DNA of 64,000 nucleotides from Candidatus Woesebacteria bacterium (GCA_020060565.1 JAGVAE010000002.1:307270-371269), one strand, 5' to 3'; positions 16,724 to 64,000 are shown, numbered from the stretch's first letter. The notes: a model not told the origin generated them from the letters alone. Made by a program: numbers and translations.

Positions 16724-16728
16724 TAAGT

Positions 16729-34992: not shown

Positions 34993-35009
34993 TGTGCTAT
35001 CATGAAGAA

Positions 35010-47194: not shown

Positions 47195-49524
47195 AGCTCC
47201 GTTTTCTTAAAAACTGGCCGATTTTCGCTATTTTTGTAGTTGTTTTTGTCTTTTTTTGGAAAGTTTTCTTGTTAGGACAAGTTCCCATCCCAGCCGATTT
47301 TATTGTAGGTACTTACTATCCATGGCTGGATTACAAATGGGGTTATTCAGTTGGAGTTCCTGTTAAAAATCCAGTAACTAGTGATGTGGTTTCAATAGTA
47401 TACCCACTTAGAAGTTATGCAGTTGATATTTTAAGACAAGGACGTCTGCCTTTATGGAATCCTTTTATGTTTAATGGGTTTCCACTTCTTGCAGATTTTC
47501 AAGTTGGACTGCTTTCTCCAACTATGTTGTTATATTTTTTTCTCCCTAAGATCTGGGCTTGGACATTTCAAGTAATGGCACAGCCTTTTCTTGCAGCACT
47601 TTTTACATATTTATTACTCAGGAACTTTGGACTTGAAAAGAAGGCATCTTTTTTTGGAGGAATCTTTTATGCATTCGCGTCATTTAACATAGTTTGGATG
47701 GAATGGAATACAAATTCACTCGTTGCAGCATTTATACCCTTAATCATTTTATTATTGGATAAACTCATAAAAACTGGAAAGACATATTGGGGGATCTTGT
47801 TATCTGTGAGTATATGTTTACAAATATTCTCAGGCTATCCACAACTGGTTATTTTTACAGTAGTGGCTCTTTTTGTTTTTATTTTCTTCCATTTGAAAGA
47901 ATTTAATATAAAGAAAATCTTTTATATTTTATTATTTCTTTTTTCGGGACTATTACTTTCAGCAGTAATTACAATTCCAGCATCTGAACTAATATTAAAT
48001 TCTCAAAGAAGGTTCGAGATTTTGGCGCATGATCTCATTTATCTTCCTTGGCAAAATTTAATTACAATATTTGCACCAGATTATTTTGGCAATCCCGCAA
48101 CTGGAAATTATTTTGGTGTTGGTAATTACGCTATTAACACAATTTACTCAGGAGTAATTGTATTTATTTTGGCATTAGTTGGAATTTTTAAATATTGGAA
48201 TCGTCGTGAAATAAAATACTTTGTTTGCTTGATTCTTCTAAGTTTACTGTTTGCTCTTCCAACTCCTTTTGCAAAGTTGCTTTTTGATTTTCATATTCCA
48301 GGTCTTTCAGCATCATCCAATACTAGAATATTAGTTTTGGCGAACTTATCATTTGCCGTACTTGCTGGTTTTGGAATGTTGAGTCTTTTAAAGAAGGAAA
48401 AAATATCAAACCTTAAAATTATTTTTATACCATTAATTACCCTTATTGGAGCTTTTTTCTATACCCACTTCTTTGGAATTGATAAAAGTATCTCACTAAG
48501 AAATCTAATTTTACCAATTGGCTTTTCTGTTATAGCTATAGTATTAATTCTATTAAGGCAACACTTTTACGATAAAAGATTGTTAAGATATTTACTTGTA
48601 ATATTCATTGGGGCGGTTGCCATAATTGAACTTTTTAGATATGGTTTCAAATATACACCATTTTCTCCCCAATACTTAATTTTTCCAGAAACTCCAATAC
48701 TTTCATATTTGAAAAAAGATAACGAACTATTCAGAGTATCGCCAGGAAATACGATACCTATGAACATGTGGGTTCCTTATGGTATTGAATCTACTTCTGG
48801 GTATGATGCTGCTTATCCTATCTGGTGGGCAACTCTATTTGGTGTAATAACCAGTCAAGATGCGGATAATAAAAGCTTCAGTTATTATGCACCTTTTGAA
48901 AAATATGATAGTCCATGGTTTGATGTACTTAACAATAAATATTTACTCGTTTATAATCCACGGTCAGTTTCAAATGAGTCTTCAGAGAAGCTGTTGCTCA
49001 ATCAAATAAACAACATCAAAAAGTTTGAAAAAGTTTTTCAGGATAAATCAGTTGCTATATTTAAAAACAACAAAGTCTTTCCCAGGGCATTTTTCGTTTC
49101 CGACTGGGAAGTTTTATCAGATAAAGAGACGCTTTCAATTCTTATCGATAAAAATTTTTCTTTTAGAGAAAAAATAACAATTAATAAAGATACAAACCTT
49201 ACAAAAAGTGAAAATGTGGTAAGTAAAGTTTCCTATAAATCCTATTCACCTGAAAAAATTTTAATAAATGTTGAAACCAATAAAGAAGGTTTTCTGTTTG
49301 TTTCTGATTCTTGGTATCCTGGTTGGAAAGCGTATGTTGATGGGAAGGGTGTGGAGATATTTCGAGCCAATTATGCCTTTAAAGCTGTCCCTGTATTAAA
49401 AGGTAATCATAAGGTAGAATTCATTTATGATCCAATGTCTTTGAAAGTCGGAAAGATATTGTCTTTGACAACACTTGTATTTTTAGTAGGAGTTTTAATA
49501 TATGAAAAACGAAAACAAATTTAA
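47191..49524 (+). CDS. YfhO-like GT-C membrane glycosyltransferase, long form of 777 aa.
   Basis: About 14 or more transmembrane helices, and a C-terminal 'DSWYPGWKAYVDGKGVEIFRANYAFKAVPVLKGNHKVEFIYDP', the classical YfhO-family C-terminus. Confidence 0.5.
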   Translation: MKLRFLKNWPIFAIFVVVFVFFWKVFLLGQVPIPADFIVGTYYPWLDYKWGYSVGVPVKNPVTSDVVSIVYPLRSYAVDILRQGRLPLWNPFMFNGFPLLADFQVGLLSPTMLLYFFLPKIWAWTFQVMAQPFLAALFTYLLLRNFGLEKKASFFGGIFYAFASFNIVWMEWNTNSLVAAFIPLIILLLDKLIKTGKTYWGILLSVSICLQIFSGYPQLVIFTVVALFVFIFFHLKEFNIKKIFYILLFLFSGLLLSAVITIPASELILNSQRRFEILAHDLIYLPWQNLITIFAPDYFGNPATGNYFGVGNYAINTIYSGVIVFILALVGIFKYWNRREIKYFVCLILLSLLFALPTPFAKLLFDFHIPGLSASSNTRILVLANLSFAVLAGFGMLSLLKKEKISNLKIIFIPLITLIGAFFYTHFFGIDKSISLRNLILPIGFSVIAIVLILLRQHFYDKRLLRYLLVIFIGAVAIIELFRYGFKYTPFSPQYLIFPETPILSYLKKDNELFRVSPGNTIPMNMWVPYGIESTSGYDAAYPIWWATLFGVITSQDADNKSFSYYAPFEKYDSPWFDVLNNKYLLVYNPRSVSNESSEKLLLNQINNIKKFEKVFQDKSVAIFKNNKVFPRAFFVSDWEVLSDKETLSILIDKNFSFREKITINKDTNLTKSENVVSKVSYKSYSPEKILINVETNKEGFLFVSDSWYPGWKAYVDGKGVEIFRANYAFKAVPVLKGNHKVEFIYDPMSLKVGKILSLTTLVFLVGVLIYEKRKQI

Positions 49525-50407
49525 AGTTTCGGTAGTAATGCCAAATCTCAATGGAGAAAAACTTTTGGAAAAGAACCTTCCAAATCTTATTGCGGCTAAA
49601 AATTATACCCCCAACGGAATAATGGAAATTATTATAGTTGATGATGGGTCTTGGGATGGTAGTGTTTCTTTTTTAAAGAAAAACTATCCAGATATCAGAC
49701 TTTTTAAGCACAAAATAAATAGAGGTTTTTCAGCAGCGGTTAATACTGGGGCGAGGGCGGCTAAGGGAGATTTGATACTCCTTATTAATACCGATGTTCT
49801 TCCAAATCGAGATTTTCTTGTAAATGTGTTGCCCAGTTTTAAAGATAAAACTGTATTTGCTGTTTCAACCCACGAAAAAGGATTTGGATCTGCAAAAGGA
49901 ACATTTGTGGATGGTTATATTCAACTTGCAATGGGGGAAGAGGGAAATAAAAAGCACCCCAGTTTTTATGTCAGCGGAGGAAGCGGGGTTTTTAGAAGAA
50001 GTATATGGGTCGAACTTGGTGGAATGGATGAAAAACTTCTTTCACCTTTTTATTGGGAAGATATAGATCTTTGCTATAGGGCAGCAAAACGTGGATATAA
50101 ACTACTTTGGGAACCAGACGCAATTGTTGAACACCACCATGAGTCCACCATTAGTAAATTTCCCAAAGATTATGTAGCAAGAATTAGGGAAAGAAATCAG
50201 CTTTTAATGCTTTGGAAGAATGTGACTAGTCCAAACCTAACCAGAAAACACATAATTGGTCTTTTGGCACGGCTTATTAAACATCCTGGGTATATTAGAA
50301 TAATAATGATGGCTCTTGGTAGATTTGGGACAGTGATGCAAAAAAGAAAGAAGGAGATAAAAGAAAGCAAGGTTTCTGATGAAGTAATATTTTCTAGATA
50401 TGCATAA
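49502..50407 (+). CDS. GT2 glycosyltransferase.
   Basis: 'VSVVMPNLNGEKLL', 'IVDDGSWDGS', 'INTDVL', 'YWEDIDLCYRA'. Confidence 0.75.
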   Translation: MKNENKFKVSVVMPNLNGEKLLEKNLPNLIAAKNYTPNGIMEIIIVDDGSWDGSVSFLKKNYPDIRLFKHKINRGFSAAVNTGARAAKGDLILLINTDVLPNRDFLVNVLPSFKDKTVFAVSTHEKGFGSAKGTFVDGYIQLAMGEEGNKKHPSFYVSGGSGVFRRSIWVELGGMDEKLLSPFYWEDIDLCYRAAKRGYKLLWEPDAIVEHHHESTISKFPKDYVARIRERNQLLMLWKNVTSPNLTRKHIIGLLARLIKHPGYIRIIMMALGRFGTVMQKRKKEIKESKVSDEVIFSRYA

Positions 50408-51236
50408 GAAAGACATTGTCCTTTCGATTGTTGTAGTTAATCTAAACACAAAAGATCTAACAATTGGTTGCATCCGTTCTGTTAAAAAAGAAGCTAAGGA
50501 TTTATCGTTTGAACTACTCTTAACCGATAATGGAAGTAATGATGGTTCTGTTGAAGCTTTTAGGGAGATTAAAAAAGAAGATTATTGGAAAGATAAATTT
50601 ACACTGATTCTTAATGATAGTAACACTGGATATGCTAAGGCAAATAATCAGGGGATAAGAAAAGCTAAAGGAAAATATATACTTCTACTAAATAATGATA
50701 CGGTAGTTCATCAAAACGCTTTACAGTGTTTGGTTAGCTTTGCCGATAAAAGTTCAGATGTTGGTGTAGTTGGTTCTCGGCTTCTTAATATTGATGGAAC
50801 ACTTCAGATGTCTTGTTATCATTTTCCAACAATAACAAATGCCATAAAGGAATATTGGCTGGGTCAGAAGGGGTTATTTGAAAAGTTTGCACCAAAAGGA
50901 AAAAATCCTATAACAGTGGACTCGGTAGTTGGGGCAGCATTCTTAATTACACCGGAAGCGAAAAAACGTGTTGGAATATTAGATGAACGCTACTTCGCTT
51001 ATTTTGAAGATATTGACTATTGTAGACAAACCTGGAAAAAAGGACTTAAGGTTTACTATCTACCTGACTCGGTTATTACACACTATCATGGAGCAACATT
51101 TAAAAAATTAGCAAATGAAAAAGAGAGGTGGAAAAAATTAATTCCTTCAAGCAAGGTTTATCATGGAACTCTTAAGCACTATATTATCAATACAGTACTT
51201 TGGTTGGGTCAAAAATGGCAAAAAATAATTTCATAA
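50400..51236 (+). CDS. GT2 glycosyltransferase.
   Basis: 'LSIVVVNLNTKDLT', 'LTDNGSNDGS', 'LLNNDTVV', 'YFEDIDYCRQ'. Confidence 0.75.
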   Translation: MHKKDIVLSIVVVNLNTKDLTIGCIRSVKKEAKDLSFELLLTDNGSNDGSVEAFREIKKEDYWKDKFTLILNDSNTGYAKANNQGIRKAKGKYILLLNNDTVVHQNALQCLVSFADKSSDVGVVGSRLLNIDGTLQMSCYHFPTITNAIKEYWLGQKGLFEKFAPKGKNPITVDSVVGAAFLITPEAKKRVGILDERYFAYFEDIDYCRQTWKKGLKVYYLPDSVITHYHGATFKKLANEKERWKKLIPSSKVYHGTLKHYIINTVLWLGQKWQKIIS

Positions 51237-52921
51237 TTTTTTTTAAAAAATTGCTTAAAGTTAAGATATTATTAATAACAATTGTCTTATTGGCATCTTT
51301 CTTACGGCTTTATAAAATTTCGATAAATCCTCCATCGCTTTTTGGTGATGAATTGGATTTGGGTTACCAAGCTTATTCAATACTTAAAACAGGACGCGAC
51401 TATCAAGGTAATTTTATGCCAATTCATTTCCACTCTTTGGCTGAATGGAGAACCCCGCTTTATTTATACTCCGCAGTTCCTACGGTTGCTGTGTTTGGTA
51501 TAACTCCACTTGGAGTACGGCTTCCCGCAGCTATATTTGGTATTTTGAGTGTGGTAGCAATGTATTTATTTGTTACCGAATTGACAAAAAACAAACGTTT
51601 AGGAGTTCTTTCGGCTTTTTTAATGGCAGTGTCTCCCTGGGCATTGCAATATTCAAGAGCAGGTTTTGAAGTAACGGAAATGTTATTTTTCCTAATTCTT
51701 GGCCTCTATTTCTTCTTAAAATCTCTTTTTCAATCAAGATACTTATGGCTTTCTGTTATTTGTTTGGTTATAACTCCTTTGATTTACTCTACTGCCAAAC
51801 TGTTTATTCCACTTCTTTTGGTTTTTCTATTTATTCTATATAGAAAAGAAGTCGTAAAATTTAAAAGAAAAGATTTAATTGTTGCACTTGTTTCTGGGTT
51901 GATTATTGGTATACCAGTTATTTATAGCACCCTTTTTGGTGGCGGAACTCAAAGAATTGGCGATATTAGTGTTTTCTCTGATCCAAATATGGAACAGGTA
52001 GTTGGAAACGGAAGGAACATTAGCAACAATAGATTCATTTATAATAAATATACTTACTGGGGAGGAAAAATTGTTGATAATTATCTTCAATCATTTTCTC
52101 CAGAATTTCTTTTTTTAAAGGGAGATATTAATCTTCGTCAATCTACAGGGATTGGTGGATTGTATTTGATTGAAATAATTGCTCTCATGTCTGGTTTAGG
52201 TTTTTTCTTCTTTGGAAGGGAGATTAGCATTAAAGTAAAATATCTAATGGGTTTTTGGATTCTTTTGGGAAGTGTTCCCTCAGCCTTAACAATTGGTGGA
52301 GGAGCTCATGCAACTCGTCTAATTTTAATTTTACCCGCATTAATATTTTTTATTTCTTTTGGTTGGGTAGCAATTTATAAAATAGTTGCACAAAAATATA
52401 AAACATCTTTTGTTGTTGCTATTTCCGTTTTGTATGCATTATGCATGCTCTTCTATTTTCATAGATATTATGCAATTTACCCAACAATTAGTGTCAATTG
52501 GTGGCATTATGGATGGAAAGGCGCAATATCTGAGATAAAATCGATTGATTCAAATTATGACCGTGTAATCATTTCAATGAAGGGGGAGCCAGCTTGGATA
52601 TTTTTTGCTGGTTACTATCAATATGATCCACATCTTTGGCAGACAGAATTTCCAATTGGAAAGGATGTTGAAGTCTCTGGATTTGGAAAGATCTCCCATA
52701 TAGGAAAATATTATTTTGGCTCTCCCAATGAGGAAGTCAAAATATACGGGTTGGGCAAGTATATAGATGCAAAAACCTTGTATTTAGCTAATGCCAACGA
52801 AGACGGAGAAAACCTGGTTAAATATCCAGATAAAACACCAGATGGGTTGAAGCTTATAAAAAGTATTACTTATCCTTCAGGTGAACCCGCATTTTATCTT
52901 TTTGAAGGAACTGCAAAATGA
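51215..52921 (+). CDS. ArnT/PMT_2-family GT-C glycosyltransferase, tandem array member 1 of 5. ATG at 51215; the track has TTG at 51200.
   Basis: 'LRLYKISINPPSLFGDELDLGYQAYSILKTGRDYQGNFMP'. Confidence 0.6.
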   Translation: MAKNNFIIFFKKLLKVKILLITIVLLASFLRLYKISINPPSLFGDELDLGYQAYSILKTGRDYQGNFMPIHFHSLAEWRTPLYLYSAVPTVAVFGITPLGVRLPAAIFGILSVVAMYLFVTELTKNKRLGVLSAFLMAVSPWALQYSRAGFEVTEMLFFLILGLYFFLKSLFQSRYLWLSVICLVITPLIYSTAKLFIPLLLVFLFILYRKEVVKFKRKDLIVALVSGLIIGIPVIYSTLFGGGTQRIGDISVFSDPNMEQVVGNGRNISNNRFIYNKYTYWGGKIVDNYLQSFSPEFLFLKGDINLRQSTGIGGLYLIEIIALMSGLGFFFFGREISIKVKYLMGFWILLGSVPSALTIGGGAHATRLILILPALIFFISFGWVAIYKIVAQKYKTSFVVAISVLYALCMLFYFHRYYAIYPTISVNWWHYGWKGAISEIKSIDSNYDRVIISMKGEPAWIFFAGYYQYDPHLWQTEFPIGKDVEVSGFGKISHIGKYYFGSPNEEVKIYGLGKYIDAKTLYLANANEDGENLVKYPDKTPDGLKLIKSITYPSGEPAFYLFEGTAK

Positions 52922-52974
52922 CAAGCTTTGCTAAGTAATGTCTCTTAGCCTTCTTGATGGTACAATTATTGTAG

Positions 52975-54669
52975 ATGAAAAGGATCGCAATTTGGGTTAT
53001 TCTGATTTTTGCATTTTTGCTTCGTTTTATATTAATAGATAAATATCCAATGGGATTTAATGCCGATGAAGCCTCTTTTGGTTATGATGCCTATTCAATC
53101 TTAAAAACTGGCAAGGACCAGTGGGGGAACACATTTCCTTTAGTCCTTAAGTCGTTTGGGGATTATAAATCACCAATCTTTAGCTATCTGACGATTCCAT
53201 CGATCGCCGTCTTTGGTCTTAGTGTCTTTGCAACCCGCCTTCCCAATGTAATAATTGGCACTCTAGCTGTTTTTGCAGTTTATTTATTAGTTCTTGAAAT
53301 TGGTAAATTGAAAATTAGTCATTCATTGAAAATTGGCAATTGGAAATTGGCAATTGCGGCAAGTTTTTTGCTTGCCGTCAATCCTTGGAGTGTAATGATG
53401 AGTAGAGGTGCATTTGAAGCGAACTTGATTACTCTTTTTTTACCTCTTGGAATTTATTTCTTTTTAAGAGCACAGGAAAACAGTAAGTATTATGTTTGGT
53501 CCTCTGTTTTTTTTGGAATTAATCTTTTTACGTATCATTCAGCAAAATTTATTACCCCAATAGTACTTGTTGGGCTAATACTTATTTTTAGAAAGTCTAT
53601 TGCAAATATCAAATTCAATAAAATTTTACCGTCACTGGTAATGTTTTTAGTATTCTTTGGTGCTCTTGTTTACTCTTTGACAATTGGGGGCGCAACTAGA
53701 ATGGTAGAAAGAAGTATTACTCAAGGCGCACTTATCCAGGGTTTTGATGAGAGAATGGAAGCACTTTCTCACGGGTCAAACCCAATAGTTGCCAAAATAC
53801 TTCACAATAAATATCAAGTAATGGTAAGTAGGTTTATTTTTAATTATTTTCAATATTATTCGCCTAAATTTTTAATTAATGATGGGGCTGGGGACGGAAG
53901 CTATGGAATGATACCTGGTGTTGGAGTTGTTAACATGGTTGAAATTGTTTTGTTCTTTGGAATTATTCCACTATTGTTTATTGAGAAAAAGTATAAAAAC
54001 GTACTTTTGGTGGTTTTAGCTTGGTTGGCTATAACTCCAGTTCCTGCTGCATTGGCAACAGGTATAGGTTACTCGGGCAATAGAGCAGAAGGGATGATTC
54101 CTGTTTTACAAATCATTGGAGCCTTTGGATTTGTTGGATGGGCACTTCTTTTAAAAAGATTTAAAAGGATCTATTTTAAAATTGTATTGGTTTGTTTAGG
54201 TATACTATTAATTTTTGGAGTATATGGATTTGTCAGATCATACTTTAAGATTCCTTCAAATCTAGTATTAAGTCAGCAAATATATGGGAGTTTAGAGGTT
54301 GCTGCTTGGTTGTCAGAAAACAGCAAAGGACGTGAAGTATTGGTTAGTAGAAGCTTAACTGAAACTCAAATCTTTGTAGCATTTGCAAATGCTTGGGATC
54401 CAATTAATTTTCAGAAAAATACAAAAACCTGGGGGTTTGATGAGTCAAACTTATCTTGGGTAGATCAATTACCAAATTATTCAGTTGGAAATTATACATT
54501 TAAATCCATCGATCCAATAAAAGATTTTATGGGGGATAGATTAATTGTTTTGAGGGCTCATGAGTTCGTAGGAGAACAAATTCCGACAAAAGTATTTTAT
54601 TATCCAGATGGAACACCAAATATTTATGTTTTAGATATGAACCAAAAAGCTTATGCAAACAACATATAA
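52975..54669 (+). CDS. ArnT/PMT_2-family GT-C glycosyltransferase, array member 2.
   Basis: 'LRFILIDKYPMGFNADEASFGYDAYSILKTGKDQWGNTFP'. It contains an AATTGG-based repeat at 53296-53357. Confidence 0.6.
   Translation: MKRIAIWVILIFAFLLRFILIDKYPMGFNADEASFGYDAYSILKTGKDQWGNTFPLVLKSFGDYKSPIFSYLTIPSIAVFGLSVFATRLPNVIIGTLAVFAVYLLVLEIGKLKISHSLKIGNWKLAIAASFLLAVNPWSVMMSRGAFEANLITLFLPLGIYFFLRAQENSKYYVWSSVFFGINLFTYHSAKFITPIVLVGLILIFRKSIANIKFNKILPSLVMFLVFFGALVYSLTIGGATRMVERSITQGALIQGFDERMEALSHGSNPIVAKILHNKYQVMVSRFIFNYFQYYSPKFLINDGAGDGSYGMIPGVGVVNMVEIVLFFGIIPLLFIEKKYKNVLLVVLAWLAITPVPAALATGIGYSGNRAEGMIPVLQIIGAFGFVGWALLLKRFKRIYFKIVLVCLGILLIFGVYGFVRSYFKIPSNLVLSQQIYGSLEVAAWLSENSKGREVLVSRSLTETQIFVAFANAWDPINFQKNTKTWGFDESNLSWVDQLPNYSVGNYTFKSIDPIKDFMGDRLIVLRAHEFVGEQIPTKVFYYPDGTPNIYVLDMNQKAYANNI
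53330..53357 (+). repeat. A 14-bp tandem duplication (aaattggcaattgg / aaattggcaattgc) built from AATTGG units, inside the ArnT-like gene at 52975..54669. More AATTGG-like units lie just upstream at 53296-53316.
   Basis: Read directly from the sequence. The position is homologous to the repeat in the paralogue at 56700. Confidence 0.7.
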
Positions 54670-56368
54670 ATCAAAATGGAAAGAAATTGGGACCTTAATT
54701 GTAATTGTTGTTTTGGGGTTTTTTTTAAGATGTTATTCTCTTACTTCTTTTCCACCTTCACTAAATTGGGATGAGGTATCACATGGTTACAATTCATATT
54801 CTATTTTGAAGACGGGAAAAGATGAATGGGGAGAAAACTTACCTTCGATCTTCAGGGCGTATGGAGATTATAAACTTCCTGTCTATATATACATAACTAC
54901 AATATCAATAAAAGCATTTGGTTTAACTGATTTTGCAGTGAGATTTCCCTCTGTGTTGGCAGGAGTGGGAACTATAATCGCAACATACTATTTGACGTAT
55001 GAGTTGTTTAGGAAAAGGAAACTCGGTTATTTATCAGCTTTCTTAGTTGCTGTTGAACCCTGGAGTCTTTTTACTTCCCGAGGGGCATTTGAAGCTAATT
55101 TAGCCTTGTTTTTTGTTGTTCTTGGTGTTTATTTCTTTGTAAAGATTATTAAGAATTCTAAATATCTAATATTTTCATCATTCTTTTTAGGTCTTTCTGT
55201 ATGGACTTACAATTCGGCACGCGGATTTGTTCCAATCCTATTGATAGTTATGGCAATGCTGTATAAAAAAGGTCTAAAAGACATTTTTTCAAGAAACATA
55301 AAAACCATTATATTTAGCGCCTTAGTTTTGATGGTTTTTTTAATTCCCATGTTTGTCCAACTTATGCAGCCATCTGGTCAGGCGCGGTATGGCAAAGTTT
55401 CACTTATAGATAATGGAGCAATTACTCAAATAAATGAGTCAAGAAGGATTTCAAAACTGTCACCTTTTCTTAACCGAGCAGTTAATAATAAAGTTACATA
55501 TTTTGCTAAACATTTTACGGTTAATTGGGTCTCACACTTTTCTTTCGATTTCCTGTTTTTTAATGGTGGGAGCAATTATCAGTTTAACATTCCAAAGCAC
55601 GGCATAATCTACATTATCAATGTGATACCGATGATTGTAGGTTTTGTTTGGCTGATTATTAAGAGGTCAAAGAGTGCAATTCTACTTATTGCTTGGTTGT
55701 TAATATCGCCAATTCCGTCATCCATAACAAATGAAGCACCTCATGTCTTAAGGGTAATAACCATGCTTCCCGTGCCAATGATTATTACGGCAATTGGTAT
55801 TTACAAAATGGCAGAGTGGTTGAAAAACAAAATTCATGTTTCAAGAAGTATAACTATAACTTTATACATAATAGTTATTTTTGTTTTTTTGGAAAACTAC
55901 ATGATAAATTACTTTACTAATTATAGGAGAGATTATTCATGGAGTTGGCAATATGGTTACAAAGAAGTTGTTGGTTATGTAAGAGACAATTACAATAACT
56001 ACGATAAAATTATTGTAACAAAAAAGTATGGTGAACCCCATGAATACTTTTTGTATTATCTAAAGTATGATCCCATCAAATACCATAACGATTCGGAAAA
56101 GATAACCTTTTATCAAAGTGGTTGGTGGTGGGTAGATAGATTTGATAAATTTTATTTTGTAAACGATTGGCAGATTAAACTTAACCCTGATTATATGAGT
56201 AGTATTCAGCAGTCTTTTATAACAGAATCAAAAAATATGGTCGATTGTTCTAATGTAAAATGTTTACTTGTAACTTCGCCTGACAATTTTCCACCAGGAT
56301 GGAAAAAAGTAAAAACAACCAAATTTTTAGATGGAAGTGTGGCATTTGAAATGTATGAAAATAATTAA
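54653..56368 (+). CDS. ArnT/PMT_2-family GT-C glycosyltransferase, array member 3.
   Basis: 'LRCYSLTSFPPSLNWDEVSHGYNSYSILKTGKDEWGENLP'. Confidence 0.6.
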   Translation: MQTTYKSKWKEIGTLIVIVVLGFFLRCYSLTSFPPSLNWDEVSHGYNSYSILKTGKDEWGENLPSIFRAYGDYKLPVYIYITTISIKAFGLTDFAVRFPSVLAGVGTIIATYYLTYELFRKRKLGYLSAFLVAVEPWSLFTSRGAFEANLALFFVVLGVYFFVKIIKNSKYLIFSSFFLGLSVWTYNSARGFVPILLIVMAMLYKKGLKDIFSRNIKTIIFSALVLMVFLIPMFVQLMQPSGQARYGKVSLIDNGAITQINESRRISKLSPFLNRAVNNKVTYFAKHFTVNWVSHFSFDFLFFNGGSNYQFNIPKHGIIYIINVIPMIVGFVWLIIKRSKSAILLIAWLLISPIPSSITNEAPHVLRVITMLPVPMIITAIGIYKMAEWLKNKIHVSRSITITLYIIVIFVFLENYMINYFTNYRRDYSWSWQYGYKEVVGYVRDNYNNYDKIIVTKKYGEPHEYFLYYLKYDPIKYHNDSEKITFYQSGWWWVDRFDKFYFVNDWQIKLNPDYMSSIQQSFITESKNMVDCSNVKCLLVTSPDNFPPGWKKVKTTKFLDGSVAFEMYENN

Positions 56369-57980
56369 AAAACTGTTCACTGTTCACGGTCTACTGTTCA
56401 CTGCAATTGCTCTTGCAGCAATACTTAGACTGTGGAATTTGGGGAGTAATCCTCCAAGCCTTACTCCTGATGAAGCAGCGCTTGGATATAATGCATATTC
56501 GATTCTTAAAACTGGTAAAGATGAACACGGAACAGTGTTGCCTATCATTTTTAAATCGTTTGGAGACTTTAAACCTGGGCTTTATGTTTACTTAACAATT
56601 CCATCAATTGCTATATTTGGTTTAAATGAGTTTGCCACAAGACTTCCATCCGCTTTAGCTGGAGTTATTTCTGTGTTTTTGGTTTATTTAATAATTAGGA
56701 AATTGGAAATTGGAAATTGGAAATTGGGAATTATCGCGGCATTTGTCGCTGCTATTAATCCCTTTCTCATTTATTTTTCCAGGGGCGCTTGGGAAGCAAA
56801 TGTCTCCCTTACATTAACTCTATTTGGAATTTATTTTTTCTTAAAAGCCGTTAAAGACAGCAGGTACTTACTACTTAGTACTTTGTACTTTGCACTGACG
56901 CTAGTCACTTATCAGGGAGCCAAGTTATCAACAGCAATTGTTCTATTCCTTCTGATTGCTATATATTGGAAAGATTTTTGGAATATAAAATTGAAATATT
57001 TACTTATTTCGTTAGGGTTGGGAATTGTCATTTCGATTCCAATAATATTAAGTCTGTTCAATGGGCAAACACAAAGACTTACTATATATAGTATTTTTTC
57101 TTTTGTTCGTCCTGAGACGGAAATACAAACTTACTCAGATGGATATTTTTGGTTATTTCACTCAAATGCTCTCAATCATGCCAGAATGGTTGCGAGTCGT
57201 TGGTTTAATTTCTATTCAGGACAATTTCTTGTGTTTGAAGGGGATGTTGCTAATCCTCGCTATGGTGTCCCGTACCAAGGGGTTTTACTTATGGCAGATT
57301 TATTTATGTTACTGTTGGGGCTTTTTACGCTTTTTAAAAACAAAATGTCCAAGCCAAGCTTGTTTATATTCTTATGGTTAATTCTGGCACCCTTTTCGGC
57401 CGCTCTTTCTAGAGATCAGACAAATGCAGTAAGATCTTTAAATGCCGCAATACCTTTGATTGTTATTATTTCATTTGGTTTTAACCAAGTGGTAAGTTGG
57501 ATATCCATTCAGAGAATTAAGTTTCCTTACTACATACTACTTTCTACATTCTACTTCTTTAGTTTTGTTTACTTCCTTGATGCTATTTTTGTTCATTTAC
57601 CTGCTCATAACTCTAGTTACTGGAAATATGGTTATAAAGAAGCTGTAAGCTATATCACCGAAGTTGAATCAAAATATACACATATAATCTTTGAACAATC
57701 ATTTGACCAACCGTATATTTACTTCCTTTTTCATCAAAAGTACAGTCCAACTAAGTTTCAAGACCAGGCAAATCTAGTAAGTAGCCAATACAAAGGAGAC
57801 GTAGGATTTCAAACTCGATTGGACAATATTAGATTTGAACAGATAGATTGGAGTGCATTAAAGAATGACCATAATGTTTTGGTTGTGAGTTCAACGAATC
57901 CTGAAAAGTACCCTGTTATTAAAGAGATAAATTATTTAAATGGTCGCGATGTTGCCTTTAATATTATCGAAATAAAGTAA
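56355..57980 (+). CDS. ArnT/PMT_2-family GT-C glycosyltransferase, array member 4. Start at ATG 56355.
   Basis: 'LRLWNLGSNPPSLTPDEAALGYNAYSILKTGKDEHGTVLP'. It contains (AAATTGG)x4 at 56700-56727. Confidence 0.6.
   Translation: MKIIKKLFTVHGLLFTAIALAAILRLWNLGSNPPSLTPDEAALGYNAYSILKTGKDEHGTVLPIIFKSFGDFKPGLYVYLTIPSIAIFGLNEFATRLPSALAGVISVFLVYLIIRKLEIGNWKLGIIAAFVAAINPFLIYFSRGAWEANVSLTLTLFGIYFFLKAVKDSRYLLLSTLYFALTLVTYQGAKLSTAIVLFLLIAIYWKDFWNIKLKYLLISLGLGIVISIPIILSLFNGQTQRLTIYSIFSFVRPETEIQTYSDGYFWLFHSNALNHARMVASRWFNFYSGQFLVFEGDVANPRYGVPYQGVLLMADLFMLLLGLFTLFKNKMSKPSLFIFLWLILAPFSAALSRDQTNAVRSLNAAIPLIVIISFGFNQVVSWISIQRIKFPYYILLSTFYFFSFVYFLDAIFVHLPAHNSSYWKYGYKEAVSYITEVESKYTHIIFEQSFDQPYIYFLFHQKYSPTKFQDQANLVSSQYKGDVGFQTRLDNIRFEQIDWSALKNDHNVLVVSSTNPEKYPVIKEINYLNGRDVAFNIIEIK
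56700..56727 (+). repeat. A perfect heptanucleotide microsatellite, (AAATTGG)x4, inside the ArnT-like gene at 56355..57980 (it encodes KLEIGNWKL).
   Basis: Read directly from the sequence. Confidence 0.8.
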
Positions 57981-59620
57981 TGAAAAAAATATTATTAGTA
58001 TTGATAATCCTTTTAGCTTTTATTTTAAGGTTTTGGAAACTGGATGTGTATCCAGCTTTAAATGCCGATGAAGCAGCTATTGGCTACAATGCTTATTCAT
58101 TAATTCAAACTGGGTTGGATGAACATGGTCATTCATTTCCAATTCATTTCCAATCATTTAATGACTATAAACCAGGTCTATATTTCTATTTAGTTTTACC
58201 TTTCGTTAAAGTATTGGGATTGACAGAATGGGCGGTTAGGATCCCAGGGGCACTCTTGGGGGTATTGTCTGTTTTTGTTCTCTATCTTTTAGTTAACGAA
58301 TTATTCAAAAACAAAAAACTTGCTTTAGTATCTTCATTGTTCCTTGCCATATCCCCCTGGCACCTGCAATTTAGTAGGGGTGGGTGGGAAGTAAACACTG
58401 CAACATTTTTTATATTAAGTGGACTTTTGTTTTTCTTTAAAGCATTAAATGAAGAATTGTTTCGTTCAAAAATTATTAAGCTTGCGGCAAGTTCAATATT
58501 TTTTGTTGCGTCTCTTTACACTTACCACGCAGCAAGAGTTATTGTTCCACTTTTAGGTCTTTCCATTCTAGTTATTTATTGGAAAAAGATACTAATAAAT
58601 TTTAAGCCATATTTGATATTTTTGATAATTATCATAGTATTACTTCTTCCCCTTGTTCAGAATCTTCTTTCTTCTGGAACACTATCAAGAGTTGCAGGGG
58701 TGGGGCTTTTTGCAGACCTTGGTCCCATCAATCGCACAAACGAGCAAAGAGGGGAACATGGAAGTGTAACAAGTATTACAGGCAGGCTACTTCATAATAA
58801 AGTTATAAATTATGGATTGGCATTTGCTGATAATTGGACATCTCATTTTAATGGTGAGTATTTGTTTATGTCAGGTGACTCTATTGAAAGAAATAAAGTT
58901 CCGGAAACAGGGGAGATGTACTTGATTGATATTCTCTTTTTGGTAATTGGATTTATATATCTTTCAAAAGGTTTTAATAATAGTTGGAAATTTATAATTT
59001 TGTGGTTAGTGATTGCGCCCATTGCCTCAGCCCTGACTTTCCAGTCCCCCAATGCTTTAAGATCGCAAAATATGGTGATTCCACTTGTTGTAATAAGTGC
59101 CTTTGGACTAACAAAGATAGTTGAATGGTTAAATAGTCAAATGGTTAGTAATATCTTGCGTACTACATTCTACATACTACTTGCCACTTTTATTATTTGG
59201 AATTTCACACGATACCTAAATATGTACTACTTACATATGAGCAAAGTTTATCCTTATTCTTCTCAGTATGGGGTTAAGGAGCTTGTTACATATGTTTCTG
59301 AGAATCAATCGAAGCATAAAGATATATATATAACAAACAGATATGATCAGCCATATATTTTATTTTTATTCTACTTAAAATATTCACCTCAAATGTTTCA
59401 AGAAAATCATAGCTTAACTTCCCGTGATGGTTATGGTTTTTCAACTGTTGCCAATTTTGATAAATATCACTTTGGATCAATTGATTTTGATTCATTCAAG
59501 AATAATTACCCAGAAAGCCTCATAATAGGTGCACCTAGCGAGATACCAAATTCAGCAAATATTATTAAGCGGATTTACGGAACAAATGGATTTGAATATT
59601 TTGATATAGTACAAGATTAG
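57980..59620 (+). CDS. ArnT/PMT_2-family GT-C glycosyltransferase, array member 5.
   Basis: 'LRFWKLDVYPALNADEAAIGYNAYSLIQTGLDEHGHSFP'. Confidence 0.6.
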   Translation: MKKILLVLIILLAFILRFWKLDVYPALNADEAAIGYNAYSLIQTGLDEHGHSFPIHFQSFNDYKPGLYFYLVLPFVKVLGLTEWAVRIPGALLGVLSVFVLYLLVNELFKNKKLALVSSLFLAISPWHLQFSRGGWEVNTATFFILSGLLFFFKALNEELFRSKIIKLAASSIFFVASLYTYHAARVIVPLLGLSILVIYWKKILINFKPYLIFLIIIIVLLLPLVQNLLSSGTLSRVAGVGLFADLGPINRTNEQRGEHGSVTSITGRLLHNKVINYGLAFADNWTSHFNGEYLFMSGDSIERNKVPETGEMYLIDILFLVIGFIYLSKGFNNSWKFIILWLVIAPIASALTFQSPNALRSQNMVIPLVVISAFGLTKIVEWLNSQMVSNILRTTFYILLATFIIWNFTRYLNMYYLHMSKVYPYSSQYGVKELVTYVSENQSKHKDIYITNRYDQPYILFLFYLKYSPQMFQENHSLTSRDGYGFSTVANFDKYHFGSIDFDSFKNNYPESLIIGAPSEIPNSANIIKRIYGTNGFEYFDIVQD

Positions 59621-59627
59621 AAAGAAT

Positions 59628-60476
59628 ATGAAACTAAGCGTTGTATTGGCTACAAGAAATGAGGAAGAAAATATTAAAAGATGTTTGGAATCGGTTAAAT
59701 CTATTGCCGATGAAGTAATAGTGGTAGATGAGTATTCAACAGATAAAACCAGAGAAATTGCAGAAAGCTTGGGGGCTAAGGTATCTCTGGAACCTCACCA
59801 TGCAATATTCCATATAACCAAACAGAAAGCATTGGATAAAGCCAAAGGGGAGTGGATTTTACAACTTGATGCAGATGAGGTGGTTACACCTGAGTTGGCT
59901 CAGGAAATTCAAATGATAATTAATGAAGAAAAAATAACAGTTCCAGAAAAAAGGAAAAAACTATTTGCAAGGCACCAAAATCTGATTGAAAAAAGAGATG
60001 GGGTAGTTGGGAAAAAGACGGGGGAGATTGTTGGTTATTTCATTCCAAGACGTAACATGTTTTTAGGTAAACCTTTGATTCATGCAGGTGTGTATCCTGA
60101 TGGAGTAATTAGACTAGTTAAGAATGGTAAATCACACTTTCCACAAAAATCTGTTCATGAACAGATTGGACTTGATGGGGAAGTGGGTTGGCTTTCAGGG
60201 GATCTTCTTCACTATGATTCCCCCACCCTAAGGCGTTATTTGAAACGACTTAATAGATATACAGATCTGCATGCAAAGGAGTTAGAAGAAAAGCAAGTTA
60301 CCAAAAGCTGTTTGGGATTTTTAAATTACACTTTAATTAAACCAACCGTAGTTTTCTTAAGTCTGTTCTTTAGACACAAGGGATTTTTAGATGGGGCAAA
60401 TGGATTTTTGTGGTCTTTCTTTTCAGCTTCCCATTTTCCAGTTGCATATTTCAAGTATATTACGAATAAGCAGTAA
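59628..60476 (+). CDS. GT2 glycosyltransferase, family D paralogue.
   Basis: 'LSVVLATRNEEENI', 'LDADEVV', 'IHAGVYPDGVIRLVKNGKSHF'. Confidence 0.7.
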   Translation: MKLSVVLATRNEEENIKRCLESVKSIADEVIVVDEYSTDKTREIAESLGAKVSLEPHHAIFHITKQKALDKAKGEWILQLDADEVVTPELAQEIQMIINEEKITVPEKRKKLFARHQNLIEKRDGVVGKKTGEIVGYFIPRRNMFLGKPLIHAGVYPDGVIRLVKNGKSHFPQKSVHEQIGLDGEVGWLSGDLLHYDSPTLRRYLKRLNRYTDLHAKELEEKQVTKSCLGFLNYTLIKPTVVFLSLFFRHKGFLDGANGFLWSFFSASHFPVAYFKYITNKQ

Positions 60477-60700: not shown

Positions 60701-61408
60701 ATGAATTTAAAAAACAAAGCTGCTATTGTTACTGGAGCAAGTGATGGACTTGGAAAACAAGTGACTTTTAAATTGGCGAAAGAAGGAGTAAGTCTGGCAC
60801 TTATAGCAAGGGACGAAGGTAGATTAAATGAAGTTAAGCTGGAAGCAGAGAAACTTGGTTCTCCGAAAGTTGAAGTTTATCCATGTGATATTTCCGACAG
60901 TAAAAAGGTTGAAGATGTTGTGCGTCAGATTGAAGTTGATTTTAATGAAGTTCAAATTCTTTTAAACATTGCTGGTATCTGGCAGAAATTAAATTTATTA
61001 GAAGACATATCTATAGAAGAGATAGACCAAGTTGTTGATATTGATCTAAAAGCAATGATGTATATGACCCATTTCGTCCTCCCCATTCTCAAACGTCAAA
61101 AGGAAGCTCTAATAATTAACGATTCTTCAAAGTCCGGGGTCACGGCTCAACCAGGACAAAGCATTTATACAGCTGCAAAGTGGGGAGTGAGAGGTTTTAC
61201 TGACGTACTTAAAGAAGATCTAAAGAATACCACGGTTCGTGTAGCAGGTCTTTATCAGGGAGGAACTAATACTGAAATGTTTAATAAAAGTGGTGAACAT
61301 TTCGATCAGAGTAAATTTATCAACCCAGAAGATTTAGCTGATGTTATCCTTTTTATGCTTTCTCGACCCTCTAAGATTTGGCTTCACGATGTCAGAGTGG
61401 AGTATTAA
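60701..61408 (+). CDS. Short-chain dehydrogenase/reductase (SDR).
   Basis: 'AAIVTGASDGLGKQ' and 'YTAAKWG' (YxxxK). Confidence 0.8.
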   Translation: MNLKNKAAIVTGASDGLGKQVTFKLAKEGVSLALIARDEGRLNEVKLEAEKLGSPKVEVYPCDISDSKKVEDVVRQIEVDFNEVQILLNIAGIWQKLNLLEDISIEEIDQVVDIDLKAMMYMTHFVLPILKRQKEALIINDSSKSGVTAQPGQSIYTAAKWGVRGFTDVLKEDLKNTTVRVAGLYQGGTNTEMFNKSGEHFDQSKFINPEDLADVILFMLSRPSKIWLHDVRVEY

Positions 61409-61438: not shown

Positions 61439-62401
61439 ATGCTCAAAATTGCAATTGATTCAGGACCACTCACGAGTGGGGATTCGATTAGGGGGATAGG
61501 AACTTATACAAGAGAGCTTCTAAAGTCTCTAAATATGAAAGGGGTGGATGTCTCAAAGGAAGACCTGGAAAAGTACGATATTGTTCACTTCACACGCTTT
61601 AACCCGTTTTTTATTTGTCTTCCATTTGTTAAACCAAATAGGACAAGATTTATTTTGACAATCTATGACCTGATTCCTCTTATTTATCCCAAACATTACC
61701 CACCTGGGTTGAAAGGAAAAATTAAGTTTTTGATAAATAAGTTTTTGATTAAGAAAAATGTTGACGCGATTATTACAATTTCAGAGACTTCTAAGAAGGA
61801 TATTTGTAGATTCTTGGATGTGGCTCCAGATAAAGTATTTGTTACCTACTTGGCTCCCAGAGAAATATTTAAAAAACTTGAAAACCCTAAATACCCAGGT
61901 CTTCCAAAGCGTTTTGCCCTGTATGTTGGTGATGTTAATTACAATAAAAACATACCCAATTTAGTTAACGCGTGTGAGTTGGTGGGTATTCCATTAGTTA
62001 TCGCAGGAAAACAAGCTACACAAATAGAAGATATGGACTTGAATCATTCTGAATTGTCACATCTTAAAAATATTAATTGGAAGGGAGTTATTAGATTGGG
62101 GTATGTTGATGATAGTGATCTGGTTAAAATCTATAATCTTGCGTCAGTTTATGTTCAACCTTCTTTTTATGAAGGTTTTGGTCTTCCTGTTTTGGAGGCC
62201 ATAGAATGCGGTACTCCTGTTGTTGCAACGAAAATTCAATGCTTGGTAGAAGTATTGGGAAATAGTTTTGATTATGTTGATGCCAAGGATCCAAAAGATA
62301 TGGCAAGGGGAATATCAAATCCAAATAAGAATGTAAAACTTCCGAGGGCATATTCCTGGGAAAAGACTGGAAAATCGACCCTGAAAGTATATAATAGCTA
62401 A
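61439..62401 (+). CDS. GT4 (group 1) glycosyltransferase.
   Basis: 'VYVQPSFYEGFGLPVLEAIECGTPVVATK'. Confidence 0.8.
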   Translation: MLKIAIDSGPLTSGDSIRGIGTYTRELLKSLNMKGVDVSKEDLEKYDIVHFTRFNPFFICLPFVKPNRTRFILTIYDLIPLIYPKHYPPGLKGKIKFLINKFLIKKNVDAIITISETSKKDICRFLDVAPDKVFVTYLAPREIFKKLENPKYPGLPKRFALYVGDVNYNKNIPNLVNACELVGIPLVIAGKQATQIEDMDLNHSELSHLKNINWKGVIRLGYVDDSDLVKIYNLASVYVQPSFYEGFGLPVLEAIECGTPVVATKIQCLVEVLGNSFDYVDAKDPKDMARGISNPNKNVKLPRAYSWEKTGKSTLKVYNS

Positions 62402-62404
62402 AAT

Positions 62405-63343
62405 ATGGCCACAAACTTCTGGATCGGTAAAAGAGTTTTAATTACTGGGGGCAGTGGTTTTTTGGGAAAACACTTAATAGCAAAACTCAAGGAGAAAAAT
62501 CCCAAATCAATTAGGATTGCCGATATTGATAAATACGACCTTAGAGAGTACAAAGATTGTCTCAGGGCTAGTCGTGGGATTGATGTAGTGATTCATTTAG
62601 CAGCCAAGGTTGGTGGAATTGGATTTAATAGGGAGTTTCCTGCTGATCTTTTTGATGACAATATTTTAATGGGAGTTAATATGATGAAGGCTGCAAGAAT
62701 AAATAAAGTTAAAAAGTATGTAGCCTTAGGAACTATATGTGCTTATCCAAAATTTACCCCAATTCCTTTTGCCGAAAAAGATTTGTGGATGGGATATCCT
62801 GAAGAAACCAATGCTCCATACGGACTTGCTAAAAAAATGCAGCTTGTACAAGCCGAAGCATATAGACAGCAATATGGGTTTAATGCAATTTTCCTTTTAC
62901 CTGTAAATCTTTACGGTCCAGGAGATAATTTTGATCCAAAATCTTCACATGTTATACCTGCTCTTATTATGAAGTTTGTTGAAGCCAAGAGAAAAAATAA
63001 AAAAGAGGTTGTTGTTTGGGGAACAGGAAAGCCTTCCAGGGAGTTTCTATATGTAGAAGATGCAGCAGAAGGAATCTTAAAAGCAGCTGAGAAATATAAC
63101 AAGAGTGATCCTGTCAATTTAGGGGCCGGATTTGAAATAACAATAAAAGAACTTGCAAGTCTTATTAAGAAGCTATCAGGATTTAAAGGAAGTATTGTTT
63201 GGGACAAAACAAAACCTGATGGACAACCAAGACGCAAACTTAATGTGGAAAGAGCCTATAAAGAGTTTAATTTTAGAGCTAAGACTTCATTTGAAAAAGG
63301 TCTCAAAGGCACCATTGACTGGTATTTAGCAAATTTTAAATGA
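62405..63343 (+). CDS. fcl: GDP-L-fucose synthase (GDP-4-keto-6-deoxy-D-mannose 3,5-epimerase/4-reductase).
   Basis: 'VLITGGSGFLGKHL', 'LLPVNLYGPGDNFDPKSSHVIPALI', 'VVVWGTGKPSREFLYVEDAAEG', and 'KPDGQPRRKL' match the Fcl/WcaG blocks. Confidence 0.8.
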   Translation: MATNFWIGKRVLITGGSGFLGKHLIAKLKEKNPKSIRIADIDKYDLREYKDCLRASRGIDVVIHLAAKVGGIGFNREFPADLFDDNILMGVNMMKAARINKVKKYVALGTICAYPKFTPIPFAEKDLWMGYPEETNAPYGLAKKMQLVQAEAYRQQYGFNAIFLLPVNLYGPGDNFDPKSSHVIPALIMKFVEAKRKNKKEVVVWGTGKPSREFLYVEDAAEGILKAAEKYNKSDPVNLGAGFEITIKELASLIKKLSGFKGSIVWDKTKPDGQPRRKLNVERAYKEFNFRAKTSFEKGLKGTIDWYLANFK

Positions 63344-64000
63344 AAATCTTTGTTGTAATTCCTCTTTTCAATGAAAAGAAGCATATAGCCTCTGTTATAA
63401 AAAATGTAAGTAAATATAAGCTACCCATTGTTGTGGTTGATGATGGATCCACGGATGGCTCGGGTCTAAAAATAATTGCACTTCGTGATAAAGAGTTAAG
63501 AAATAAAAATGTAACTGTCTTGACTCATAGAATTAATCTAGGAAAAGGTGCAGCAATGAAAACAGGAGCAGATTATGCATTCAGTAGGGGGGCAGATGCA
63601 GTTATTTTTATGGATTCTGATGGACAACATGAAGCCTCAGATCTTCTAAAGTTTATCGATGCCCTAAAAGACGATAGGTATGATGTTATTTTGGGATCAA
63701 GGAATCTAAATTACGGAGTTCCATTGGTTAGGTTTTTGGGCAATAAATTTGCTTCAGTTTTAATGGTTTTACTCTTCAAGGTCTACGTATCTGACGTAAT
63801 ATGTGGTTTTAGAGCTATTACAAAGGATGGATATAAAAAAGTTAAATGGGATTCAGATGGATATGGAGTTGAAACTGAGATGGTTGCCAGGATTGGGAAA
63901 AATAAAACTAAGTTTAGTGAAATCCCAGTTCAGACTATTTACCATGACGTTGTTAAAGGGGTTACTCTTCTTGATGCTTTCGAAGTACTAGGTAACGTTG
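63340..64000 (+). CDS. GT2 glycosyltransferase (DPM1/GtrB-like), 3'-truncated by the window edge.
   Basis: 'KIFVVIPLFNEKKHI', 'VVVDDGSTDGS', 'MDSDGQHEASD'. The ATG overlaps the fcl stop (ATGA). Confidence 0.75.
   Translation, partial: MKIFVVIPLFNEKKHIASVIKNVSKYKLPIVVVDDGSTDGSGLKIIALRDKELRNKNVTVLTHRINLGKGAAMKTGADYAFSRGADAVIFMDSDGQHEASDLLKFIDALKDDRYDVILGSRNLNYGVPLVRFLGNKFASVLMVLLFKVYVSDVICGFRAITKDGYKKVKWDSDGYGVETEMVARIGKNKTKFSEIPVQTIYHDVVKGVTLLDAFEVLGNV

Follow-up and report, generated by a model that had tools for sequence, protein, structure and literature searches.

A conserved tandem block of five paralogous GT-C glycosyltransferase genes with one variable slot in a Candidatus Woesebacteria bacterium

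Introduction

The mycobacterial embC-embA-embB genes, together with those for the Aft, Mpt and PimE enzymes, are the closest described relatives in organisation of the gene array reported here, since paralogous GT-C glycosyltransferase genes stand there in tandem. Many of these mycobacterial GT-C enzymes share one lipid-linked monosaccharide donor, differ in the acceptor or linkage that they serve and build their polymer outside the membrane, and the Emb proteins carry large carbohydrate-binding C-terminal domains. Closest in mechanism are the transmembrane glycosylation systems of Gram-positive bacteria (CsdA/CsdB, GacI-J-K-L, SccN/SccM, SccP/SccQ and CsbB/YfhO), in which a GT-A/family 2 glycosyltransferase (GT2) makes a polyprenyl-phosphate sugar, a GtrA or Wzx protein flips it and a polytopic GT-C enzyme transfers the sugar on the outside. 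In Gram-positive wall-polysaccharide clusters each GT-C enzyme serves one position or linkage and uses undecaprenyl-phosphate-linked sugars as donors (PMC9574508; PMC11754754), and the GT-C pathway has been demonstrated for SccM and SccQ of Streptococcus mutans (PMC11754754). Here we describe five head-to-tail GT-C genes, T1 to T5, in a stretch of 64,000 nucleotides of DNA from a Candidatus Woesebacteria bacterium (GCA_020060565.1, JAGVAE010000002.1:307270-371269; hereafter the window), which encodes all three of these component types, GT2, flippase and GT-C, as well as rml genes.

Candidate Phyla Radiation bacteria (CPR, or Patescibacteria) carry genomes close to 1 Mb in size and are believed to live fixed to other cells, a lifestyle that makes the cell surface central to their biology. 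Glycosylation is not mentioned in a 2024 perspective on Patescibacteria, and in the literature that we searched we found no description of GT-C arrays in CPR bacteria or of this block.

Results

Five full-length paralogues in tandem

The window has a guanine plus cytosine (GC) content of about 34% and carries nearly all of its genes on the + strand. Listing the open reading frames (ORFs) between positions 51200 and 59620 gave five long, intact ORFs on that strand (T1 to T5, Table 1), in agreement with the first-pass annotation of this DNA, which had described five genes of 541-571 aa in tandem with overlaps or short gaps. T1 and T2 are separated by 53 nt, T2 and T3 overlap by 17 nt, T3 and T4 by 14 nt (or by 38 nt from the earlier T4 start) and T4 and T5 by 1 nt within a TAATG, and the array is flanked by a GT2 gene that overlaps the start of T1 by 22 nt and by another that follows T5 after 7 nt. 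The tight spacing of T1 to T5 fits co-transcription, making a single operon plausible.

In pairwise BLASTP comparisons T1 to T5 are 28-36% identical across alignments of 480-573 residues (E from 1e-56 down to 1e-102), those of T1 with T2 to T5 giving 28-31%, and a six-way alignment that includes a further window paralogue, D, has 39 invariant columns spread along the full length. Given this full-length similarity and the spread of the invariant columns, T1 to T5 are full-length paralogues of one architecture. The earlier description of true paralogues with a GT-C core of many transmembrane (TM) segments, an Asp-Glu (D-E) loop after the first of them (TM1) and a C-terminal domain is thus upheld; uniformly low identity with no common architecture, which would have spoken for unrelated genes, is not what the alignments gave. 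The shared C-terminal domain is a soluble alpha/beta domain of about 120 aa that can be aligned in all copies. Mean identity between the paralogues falls from 46% in residues 1-60 to 38% in residues 61-230 and to about 23-25% in the loop, the later TM helices and the C-terminal domain, so that the proposed pairing of a conserved N-terminal loop with a diverged C terminus holds as an N-to-C gradient among the paralogues.

An ancient order of genes

A scan of species-representative genomes gave 45 loci, whose informative titles are mostly Candidatus Woesebacteria, Blackburnbacteria and Microgenomates, and three more were added from look-ups of close homologues; ORFs were called in each locus (numbered with the prefix L) and each was assigned to its best-matching window gene. 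In nearly every locus of sufficient length, amounting to about 45 Microgenomates genomes, the order is T3, T4, T5 and then a GT2 of the type found at 59628, usually followed by a family 4 glycosyltransferase (GT4) and often by a short-chain dehydrogenase/reductase (SDR) and an epimerase. T4 adjoins T3 in 41 of 44 loci and T5 in 41 of 43. Upstream of T3 the relatives usually have T2, and about half of them T1, which directly precedes T2 in only some. The T1/T2 and T2/T3 junctions are the sites at which other genes come and go: the latter holds inserts in 18 of 42 loci, mostly of the YfhO type like the window genes E, F and G, and in L020 and L041 the C-D gene pair is inserted there.

Orthologues are 43-83% identical to their window counterparts, as against 28-36% between the window paralogues, and a neighbour-joining tree of 216 family members resolves into one clade for each window gene with almost no mixing (T1, 19 loci; T2, 40; T3, 43; T4, 44; T5, 41; D, 17). 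The separate orthologue clades and the conserved order indicate that the duplications predate the divergence of these lineages. Judged from these comparisons, the block of T3, T4, T5 and the GT2, with T2 usually and T1 often ahead of it, has been inherited as an ancient syntenic unit and has not been repeatedly re-created.

Two further kinds of gene occur within the array in relatives and are absent from the window. The first, at the T1/T2 junction, codes for a membrane protein of some 420 aa (34 ORFs, for example 3722-4987 of L001). The second separates T5 from the GT2 and codes for a product of some 425 aa whose N terminus bears a GxGxxG dinucleotide-binding motif (15 ORFs, for example 11651-12928 of L008). 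We also observed that thirteen records titled 'uncultured Gammaproteobacteria bacterium' carry an array of the Microgenomates type (L010, L014, L016, L017, L022, L024, L025, L032, L039-L041, L043 and L045). Their T5 proteins are 49-60% identical to that of the window (34% for the best segment of L043), and the label of these metagenome-assembled genomes is probably wrong.

Purifying selection on four of the five genes

Ratios of non-synonymous to synonymous substitution (dN/dS) were taken against the closest relative, L049, from which the window is separated by a dS of 0.9-1.9, so that the ratios are approximate. They are 0.095 for T1 (79% amino-acid identity), 0.159 for T2 (77%), 0.097 for T4 (75%) and 0.103 for T5 (83%), with similar values for the neighbouring genes, and it is clear that these four genes are under purifying selection. 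For T3 the synonymous sites are saturated and the ratio is not meaningful. They are saturated too between the window paralogues (proportion of synonymous differences, pS, 0.69-0.77), for which dN/dS is not computable.

The C-terminal domain had been put forward as the fast-evolving part of these proteins, in which changes of acceptor specificity would be concentrated. This is contradicted by its dN/dS against L049, which at 0.07-0.08 is the lowest or near-lowest of any region, and by T3, in which this domain is among the best conserved segments. Within orthologue groups the domain is 39-60% identical and every region is conserved, as long-fixed functional specialisation predicts.

T3 as a variable slot

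The behaviour of T3 sets it apart from the rest of the array. Window T3 is 46-49% identical to the T3 proteins of L049, L001 and L004, in which T2, T4 and T5 reach 55-83%; in close relatives the genes flanking T3 are 64-83% identical. Its best database match is 62% identical, compared with 81% for T5, and comes from a contig of 65,914 bp, a length shared by the contig on which a T5 homologue of 61% identity is found. Over 40 loci, identity to the window is uncorrelated between T3 and T5 (Spearman 0.02) and correlated between T4 and T5 (0.73). Among 17 pairs of loci whose T5 proteins are at least 65% identical, T3 drops below 50% identity in nine, T2 in one and T4 in none, and the four closest genomes carry three types of T3. 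Three loci (L009, L035 and L037) have two T3-like genes. In sliding windows along T3 the catalytic loop (residues ~20-80) and the C-terminal domain (~440-520) are 60-85% identical, and identity drops to 17-47% in the central membrane and loop region (~80-430).

From these alignments one slot of the array, T3, varies, and does so in its membrane core rather than in its C-terminal domain. The idea of gene turnover put forward for the whole array accordingly survives for the T3 slot, which resembles a variable cassette; the rest of the array is fixed. The variation may have arisen by replacement of a cassette from an unsampled donor, by differential loss of old T3 subtypes or by episodic fast divergence and, as the best match leaves window T3 with no close donor, horizontal replacement is indistinguishable from the other two.

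A heptanucleotide repeat in the array

Within T4, Tandem Repeats Finder located 5.6 copies of an (AATTGGA) tandem repeat at 56693-56732, and a pattern search found a degenerate copy in T2 (53325-53356). The repeat is in frame and encodes a loop insert, EIGNWKL; gain or loss of a single unit would cause a frameshift. It also occurs in relatives (L028 8671-8698, L020 10290-10324, L018 14759-14786 and L025 12990-13017). A metagenome scan gave at least 120 contigs in which the unit is present at least four times and as often as 17 times; their median GC content is 41%, and the repeat lies in many unrelated ORFs and runs in either orientation. The heptamer is a widespread dispersed simple repeat that is not specific to the array and, as it occurs in so many unrelated ORFs, we rejected it as an array-specific switch for phase variation.

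Family, fold and conserved residues

All five proteins exceed the Pfam gathering threshold of PMT_2 (PF13231, 26.1 bits), with scores of 36.7 for T1, 27.8 for T2, 46.0 for T3, 46.6 for T4 and 44.9 for T5. The PMT threshold (PF02366, 22.7 bits) is passed as well by T1, T3 and T5, at 27.4, 44.8 and 41.3 bits; T2 and T4 gave no listed match to this model. Neither MIR nor PMT_4TMC was matched in T1 to T5 at E <= 0.01, and the Pfam arabinosyltransferase model had no match among the five. Bacterial Pmt enzymes too are not known to carry MIR, so its absence does not speak against a bacterial-type Pmt. The window T genes reached no curated NCBIfam family, the best match being to the archaeal Agl23 model below its threshold; against the ArnT equivalog (NF009784/PRK13279, cutoff 567 bits) T5 scored 16 bits (E 0.0036) and T1 to T4 were unlisted at E <= 1.

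An AlphaFold2 model was made of T5, the sole T protein to be modelled, with a predicted local distance difference test score (pLDDT) of 89.7 and a predicted TM-score (pTM) of 0.91. From the N terminus it consists of a helix, a loop whose short helix bears D30-E31, a set of bundled membrane helices, a loop at ~230-300 that is helical in part, and the alpha/beta C-terminal domain at 432-546. The significant Foldseek matches of this model in the PDB are all GT-C enzymes. STT3, AglB and PglB (E 6e-9 to 1e-6), Pmt4 (E 1.4e-7) and ArnT (5ezm, E 1.6e-7, TM-score 0.54-0.55) were all matched at a probability of 1.00, and ALG9/ALG12, Emb, Aft (AftD and AftB) and PimE were matched more weakly. In the PDB, a sequence profile of the six paralogues had no matches beyond STT3 (E 0.0085) and ArnT (E 0.066). 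The name 'ArnT-like' given by the first-pass annotation is therefore apt at the level of fold and superfamily and goes too far beyond it, given that the curated ArnT model fails and that STT3, AglB, PglB and Pmt4 rank equally in Foldseek.

Invariant Arg, Asp and Tyr residues are common to all window copies. D30-E31, D47, R87, R133, R237 and R361 (T5 numbering) are invariant in the six window paralogues and kept in 95-100% of the 216 family members; the D-E motif itself, in the first loop after TM1, is found in 95%, the remainder being mostly alignment gaps. With these residues kept throughout the family, all five proteins look catalytically competent. Homology would place the D-E loop outside the membrane and, from the GT-C class and the context of the genes, we infer that the donors would be lipid-linked (polyprenyl-phosphate) sugars.

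At E <= 1e-10 T5 finds more than 2600 homologues; the first 120 match along their whole length at 59-100% identity and, where they are named, are recorded as 'glycosyltransferase family 39 protein [Patescibacteria group bacterium]' or, at JGI, as '4-amino-4-deoxy-L-arabinose transferase-like'. Searched against 1.84 billion cluster representatives, a profile of the T family retrieved 6,449 at E <= 1e-30. The family is a large clade typical of Microgenomates (CPR/Patescibacteria), with no characterised member identified.

The surrounding glycan island

The array lies in a glycan island of about 45 kb (Table 1). GT-C genes number 14 in the window, or 15 with one below threshold, and occupy about 25 kb by summed coordinates (39%). 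The five-gene set originally described is thus real and is not the whole family, which extends to D and to eight or nine further GT-C genes. D is 28-34% identical to T1 to T5 over ~490-570 residues and forms its own clade in the tree; in relatives it adjoins the array or sits inside it. Many soluble GT2 and GT4 genes complete the island. Housekeeping genes in the first 13 kb (tgt, a peptide-chain release factor gene and ftsE/ftsX-like genes) indicate that this is chromosomal DNA and not a mobile element.

Table 1. Positions of the array genes and of other glycan-related features of the window
Feature	Coordinates	Strand	Details
GalE	11678		
rmlA, rmlB, rmlC, rmlD	13917-18209		
GT2-GtrA fusion	18706		
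DPMS/GtrB-like GT2 genes	21463, 26231, 31472, 63340	- (31472)	Best solved relatives dolichol-phosphate-mannose synthase (DPMS), GtrB, ArnC
Other PMT_2-type genes	22155, 24708, 28219, 32168; 29726		29726 below threshold
D	33397-34992	+	Sixth full-length T paralogue; 531 aa; PMT_2 61 bits; 16 kb upstream of array
E, F, G	34992-40076	+	Second tandem set; YfhO/PTPS_related-type GT-C (Pfam); 30-39% mutual identity
MOP/Wzx-type flippase	40494		
Large YfhO gene	47191		GT-C
Two soluble GT2 genes	49502-50407, 50400-51236	+	Pfam; directly upstream of T1
T1	51215 (ATG) or 51200 (TTG) to 52921	+	568 aa with ATG start; GT-C paralogue
T2	52975-54669	+	564 aa; GT-C paralogue
T3	54653-56368	+	571 aa; GT-C paralogue; variable slot of array
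T4	56355 (alternative ATG 56331) to 57980	+	541 aa from 56355; GT-C paralogue
T5	57980-59620	+	546 aa; GT-C paralogue; best conserved member of array
Soluble GT2 after T5	59628-60476	+	282 aa; Glycos_transf_2 71.7 bits; no TM segment
SDR	60701-61408	+	Pfam/NCBIfam; order kept in relatives
GT4	61439-62401	+	Pfam/NCBIfam; order kept in relatives
Fcl-like epimerase/reductase	62405-63343	+	Pfam/NCBIfam; order kept in relatives
GT2 cut by window end	63340-64000	+	Candidate polyprenyl-phosphate-sugar synthase; nearest solved DPMS 5mlz, ArnC, GtrB 5ekp

The genes next to the array are partly shared with relatives. The pair of GT2 genes upstream precedes T1 in L029, L039 and L049, and one of the pair does so in L018, L030, L031 and L040. 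The GT2 at 59628 stands downstream of T5 in 41 loci and so in almost all relatives, and the best solved relatives of its N-terminal half are the N-terminal halves of GmaR and SunS. In relatives the GT2 of the 63340 type is followed by a small DUF2304 membrane protein.

Several other features of the island deserve mention. A GT2 gene is directly followed by an SDR gene twice in the window (26231 and 27050, the latter ending at 27772; 59628 and 60701, the latter ending at 61408), which may be a recurring two-gene module. DprE2-like epimerase partners were considered for these SDRs and rejected, as NCBIfam gave, among the 25 best matches listed, only generic matches of the SDR/FabG type below cutoff. 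In the RmlB-type ORF (14804-16723) the dehydratase match covers residues 2-323 of 639, and the remaining ~315 aa, its C-terminal half, matched no family. Two polytopic membrane proteins have no Pfam match. The first (41947-43605, 552 aa) has about 11 hydrophobic segments; the second (20259-21416, - strand, 385 aa) has about seven and weakly matches a 'cell surface glycopolymer formation protein' family. They may be further polymerases, ligases or GT-C-like enzymes. Upstream of the island are a Lamin-tail-domain protein and a CAP/YkwD-family protein (10396-11199 and 12721-13635), possibly surface or secreted proteins, adjoined by a PcsB-like/C39-like peptidase gene (9188-10351).

Discussion

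The history of the array can be read in other ways than as long inheritance. That it was expanded or collapsed through mis-assembly of repeats, a concern raised in the first-pass annotation, would be a matter of long and similar repeats. The longest DNA repeat among the copies is 97 nt at 62-73% identity and encodes the catalytic loop, which is too short and too divergent to confuse an assembler; the gene order recurs in independent Logan, JGI and NCBI assemblies, the GC content is uniform over the region, and nothing that we checked supports a mis-assembly, which, as far as sequence can show, we regard as vanishingly improbable. Another alternative is a young family in birth-and-death evolution under diversifying selection by phages or predators, with shifts of specificity concentrated in the C-terminal domain, as was originally proposed for the whole array. 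The discordant T3 slot, with its three types in four close relatives, would fit such a history, as would the gain and loss of other GT-C genes at the T1/T2 and T2/T3 junctions and a frameshift-prone repeat within T4. However, the five orthologue clades are ancient and their order is kept in ~45 genomes, orthologues are more alike than paralogues, synonymous sites are saturated between the paralogues, and dN/dS is 0.09-0.16 with its lowest or near-lowest values in the very domain in which diversification was expected. In T3, too, it is the central TM region that diverges whilst the C-terminal domain is 60-85% conserved, and the heptamer is a simple repeat of many unrelated genes and not a feature of the array. 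For T1, T2, T4 and T5 birth-and-death evolution is largely refuted, and as an account of the array we consider it improbable.

Taken as a whole, the explanation that we favour, with some confidence though well short of certainty, is that T1 to T5 carry out five non-redundant GT-C steps in the making of a surface glycan. The conserved order, the separate clades and the purifying selection all point to non-redundant steps. On this model the DPMS/GtrB/ArnC-like GT2 enzymes of the island would charge polyprenyl phosphate with sugars on the inner side of the membrane, and the lipid-linked sugars would then be flipped, the GT2-GtrA fusion and the Wzx-like flippase being the candidates for this. Outside the membrane, each T enzyme would attach its sugar to a position or acceptor of its own within one cell-surface glycoconjugate, so that the five would act as successive or parallel steps and would not be interchangeable copies. 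The acceptor would most likely be a rhamnose-containing wall glycopolymer, which is favoured by the rml genes, the Wzx-like flippase and the many soluble glycosyltransferases; glycans of surface proteins are the alternative. Close relatives would differ in the step carried out by T3, which would thus be the likely source of variation in the glycan.

Several observations weigh against this explanation. The GT2 after T5 resembles, in its N-terminal half, GmaR and SunS, which glycosylate proteins or peptides, and the matches to the Pfam PMT models speak for protein O-glycosylation no less than for a polysaccharide. GT-C enzymes are not paired one to one with lipid-sugar synthases, T1 to T5 standing head to tail with no synthase interleaved and the soluble GT2 after T5 not being DPMS-like, and there are about five candidate synthases to 14-15 GT-C genes. 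Pfam and NCBIfam scans of the window found no initiating phosphoglycosyltransferase, no catalytic domain of a LytR-CpsA-Psr (LCP) ligase and no rhamnan ABC exporter. As to co-transcription, promoter- and terminator-like sites in the region are no commoner than in shuffled sequence, and the scan, with the weak hairpin that it gave at 52930-52949 in the T1/T2 gap, is thus uninformative on operon structure.

If the proteins were instead PMT-type (GT39) protein O-glycosyltransferases, they might transfer, for example, mannose onto Ser/Thr residues of pili, S-layer proteins or adhesins, and their number might reflect distinct sets of acceptors or heteromers like yeast Pmt1-Pmt2. This is a serious rival. 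T1, T3 and T5 pass the PF02366 threshold and have the D-E motif in the first outer loop, close homologues are recorded as family 39 proteins, Pmt4 is among the best fold matches, the conserved GT2 after T5 resembles GmaR and SunS, and the YfhO gene at 47191 and several GT2 proteins have sub-threshold matches to Pgf protein-glycosylation proteins of S. mutans. Set against this, T2 and T4 fall below the PMT model, no MIR or PMT_4TMC was detected, no curated Pmt family was matched, STT3, AglB, PglB and ArnT fit the fold as well as Pmt4, and the content of the island (rml, Wzx and soluble GT2 and GT4 genes) resembles a polysaccharide locus, so that we hold protein O-glycosylation to be possible but rather unlikely. 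A true ArnT (GT83), which would modify lipid A or another lipid with 4-amino-4-deoxy-L-arabinose or a comparable cationic sugar and so confer resistance to cationic peptides, is suggested by the JGI protein names, by the sub-threshold ArnC-like matches of the small GT2 proteins and by 5ezm, which at ~550 aa has a similar length and the same architecture of a multi-TM core in the PMT_2 family with a small C-terminal outer domain. Yet the curated model is missed by far (16 of 567 bits, and by T5 only), the sequence-profile match in the PDB stops at an E of 0.066, and Pfam and NCBIfam scans of the window found no arnA-, arnB- or arnD-like genes of the Ara4N (4-amino-4-deoxy-L-arabinose) pathway and arnC-like matches below threshold only. 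To our knowledge CPR bacteria are described as being without lipopolysaccharide synthesis, and lipid A is not expected in them. We therefore consider a true ArnT very improbable.

Beyond five non-redundant steps in one surface glycan, a more far-reaching picture, which we offer only tentatively and think rather doubtful, would have T1 to T5 and the other 9-10 GT-C enzymes of the island form an extracytoplasmic assembly line that makes most of a complex, branched heteropolysaccharide of the surface out of polyprenyl-phosphate monosaccharides, much as arabinan and mannan are made in mycobacteria, though here in an ultra-small CPR bacterium with a single membrane; T3 would be an exchangeable step that sets the glycan type (serotype) and with it recognition by host or phage. 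Irrespective of this, the order of the block is kept across Woesebacteria, Blackburnbacteria and related lineages, which argues for a conserved, multi-step and uncharacterised surface glycan. T1 to T5 represent a set of targets for glycan chemistry in CPR enrichments, and T3, the one variable slot among fixed ones, is a candidate marker for the type of glycan.

The array can finally be placed beside the described systems. The Gram-positive systems have one or two GT-C enzymes, each with its own GT2, whereas the window has five or six paralogues head to tail with no paired synthases, and the T genes do not belong to those families at the level of sequence. The tandem organisation of the mycobacterial genes is more similar, but the fold matches of T5 to Emb, AftD, AftB and PimE are weak (E 1e-3 to 4e-2, TM-score 0.27-0.39), and the Emb chains in the PDB have ~1,050-1,080 residues compared with ~550 aa, including a C-terminal domain of 120 aa, in the T proteins. 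With PMT enzymes the T proteins share the loop-1 D-E motif and a Pmt4-like GT-C fold, and with ArnT their size and layout, and they differ from both in the domains, curated families and pathway genes considered above. Viewed against all of these systems, the enzymology of T1 to T5 is ordinary, and what the literature that we searched does not describe is a conserved arrangement of such genes, with one slot in five that varies, in organisms that are themselves poorly understood.

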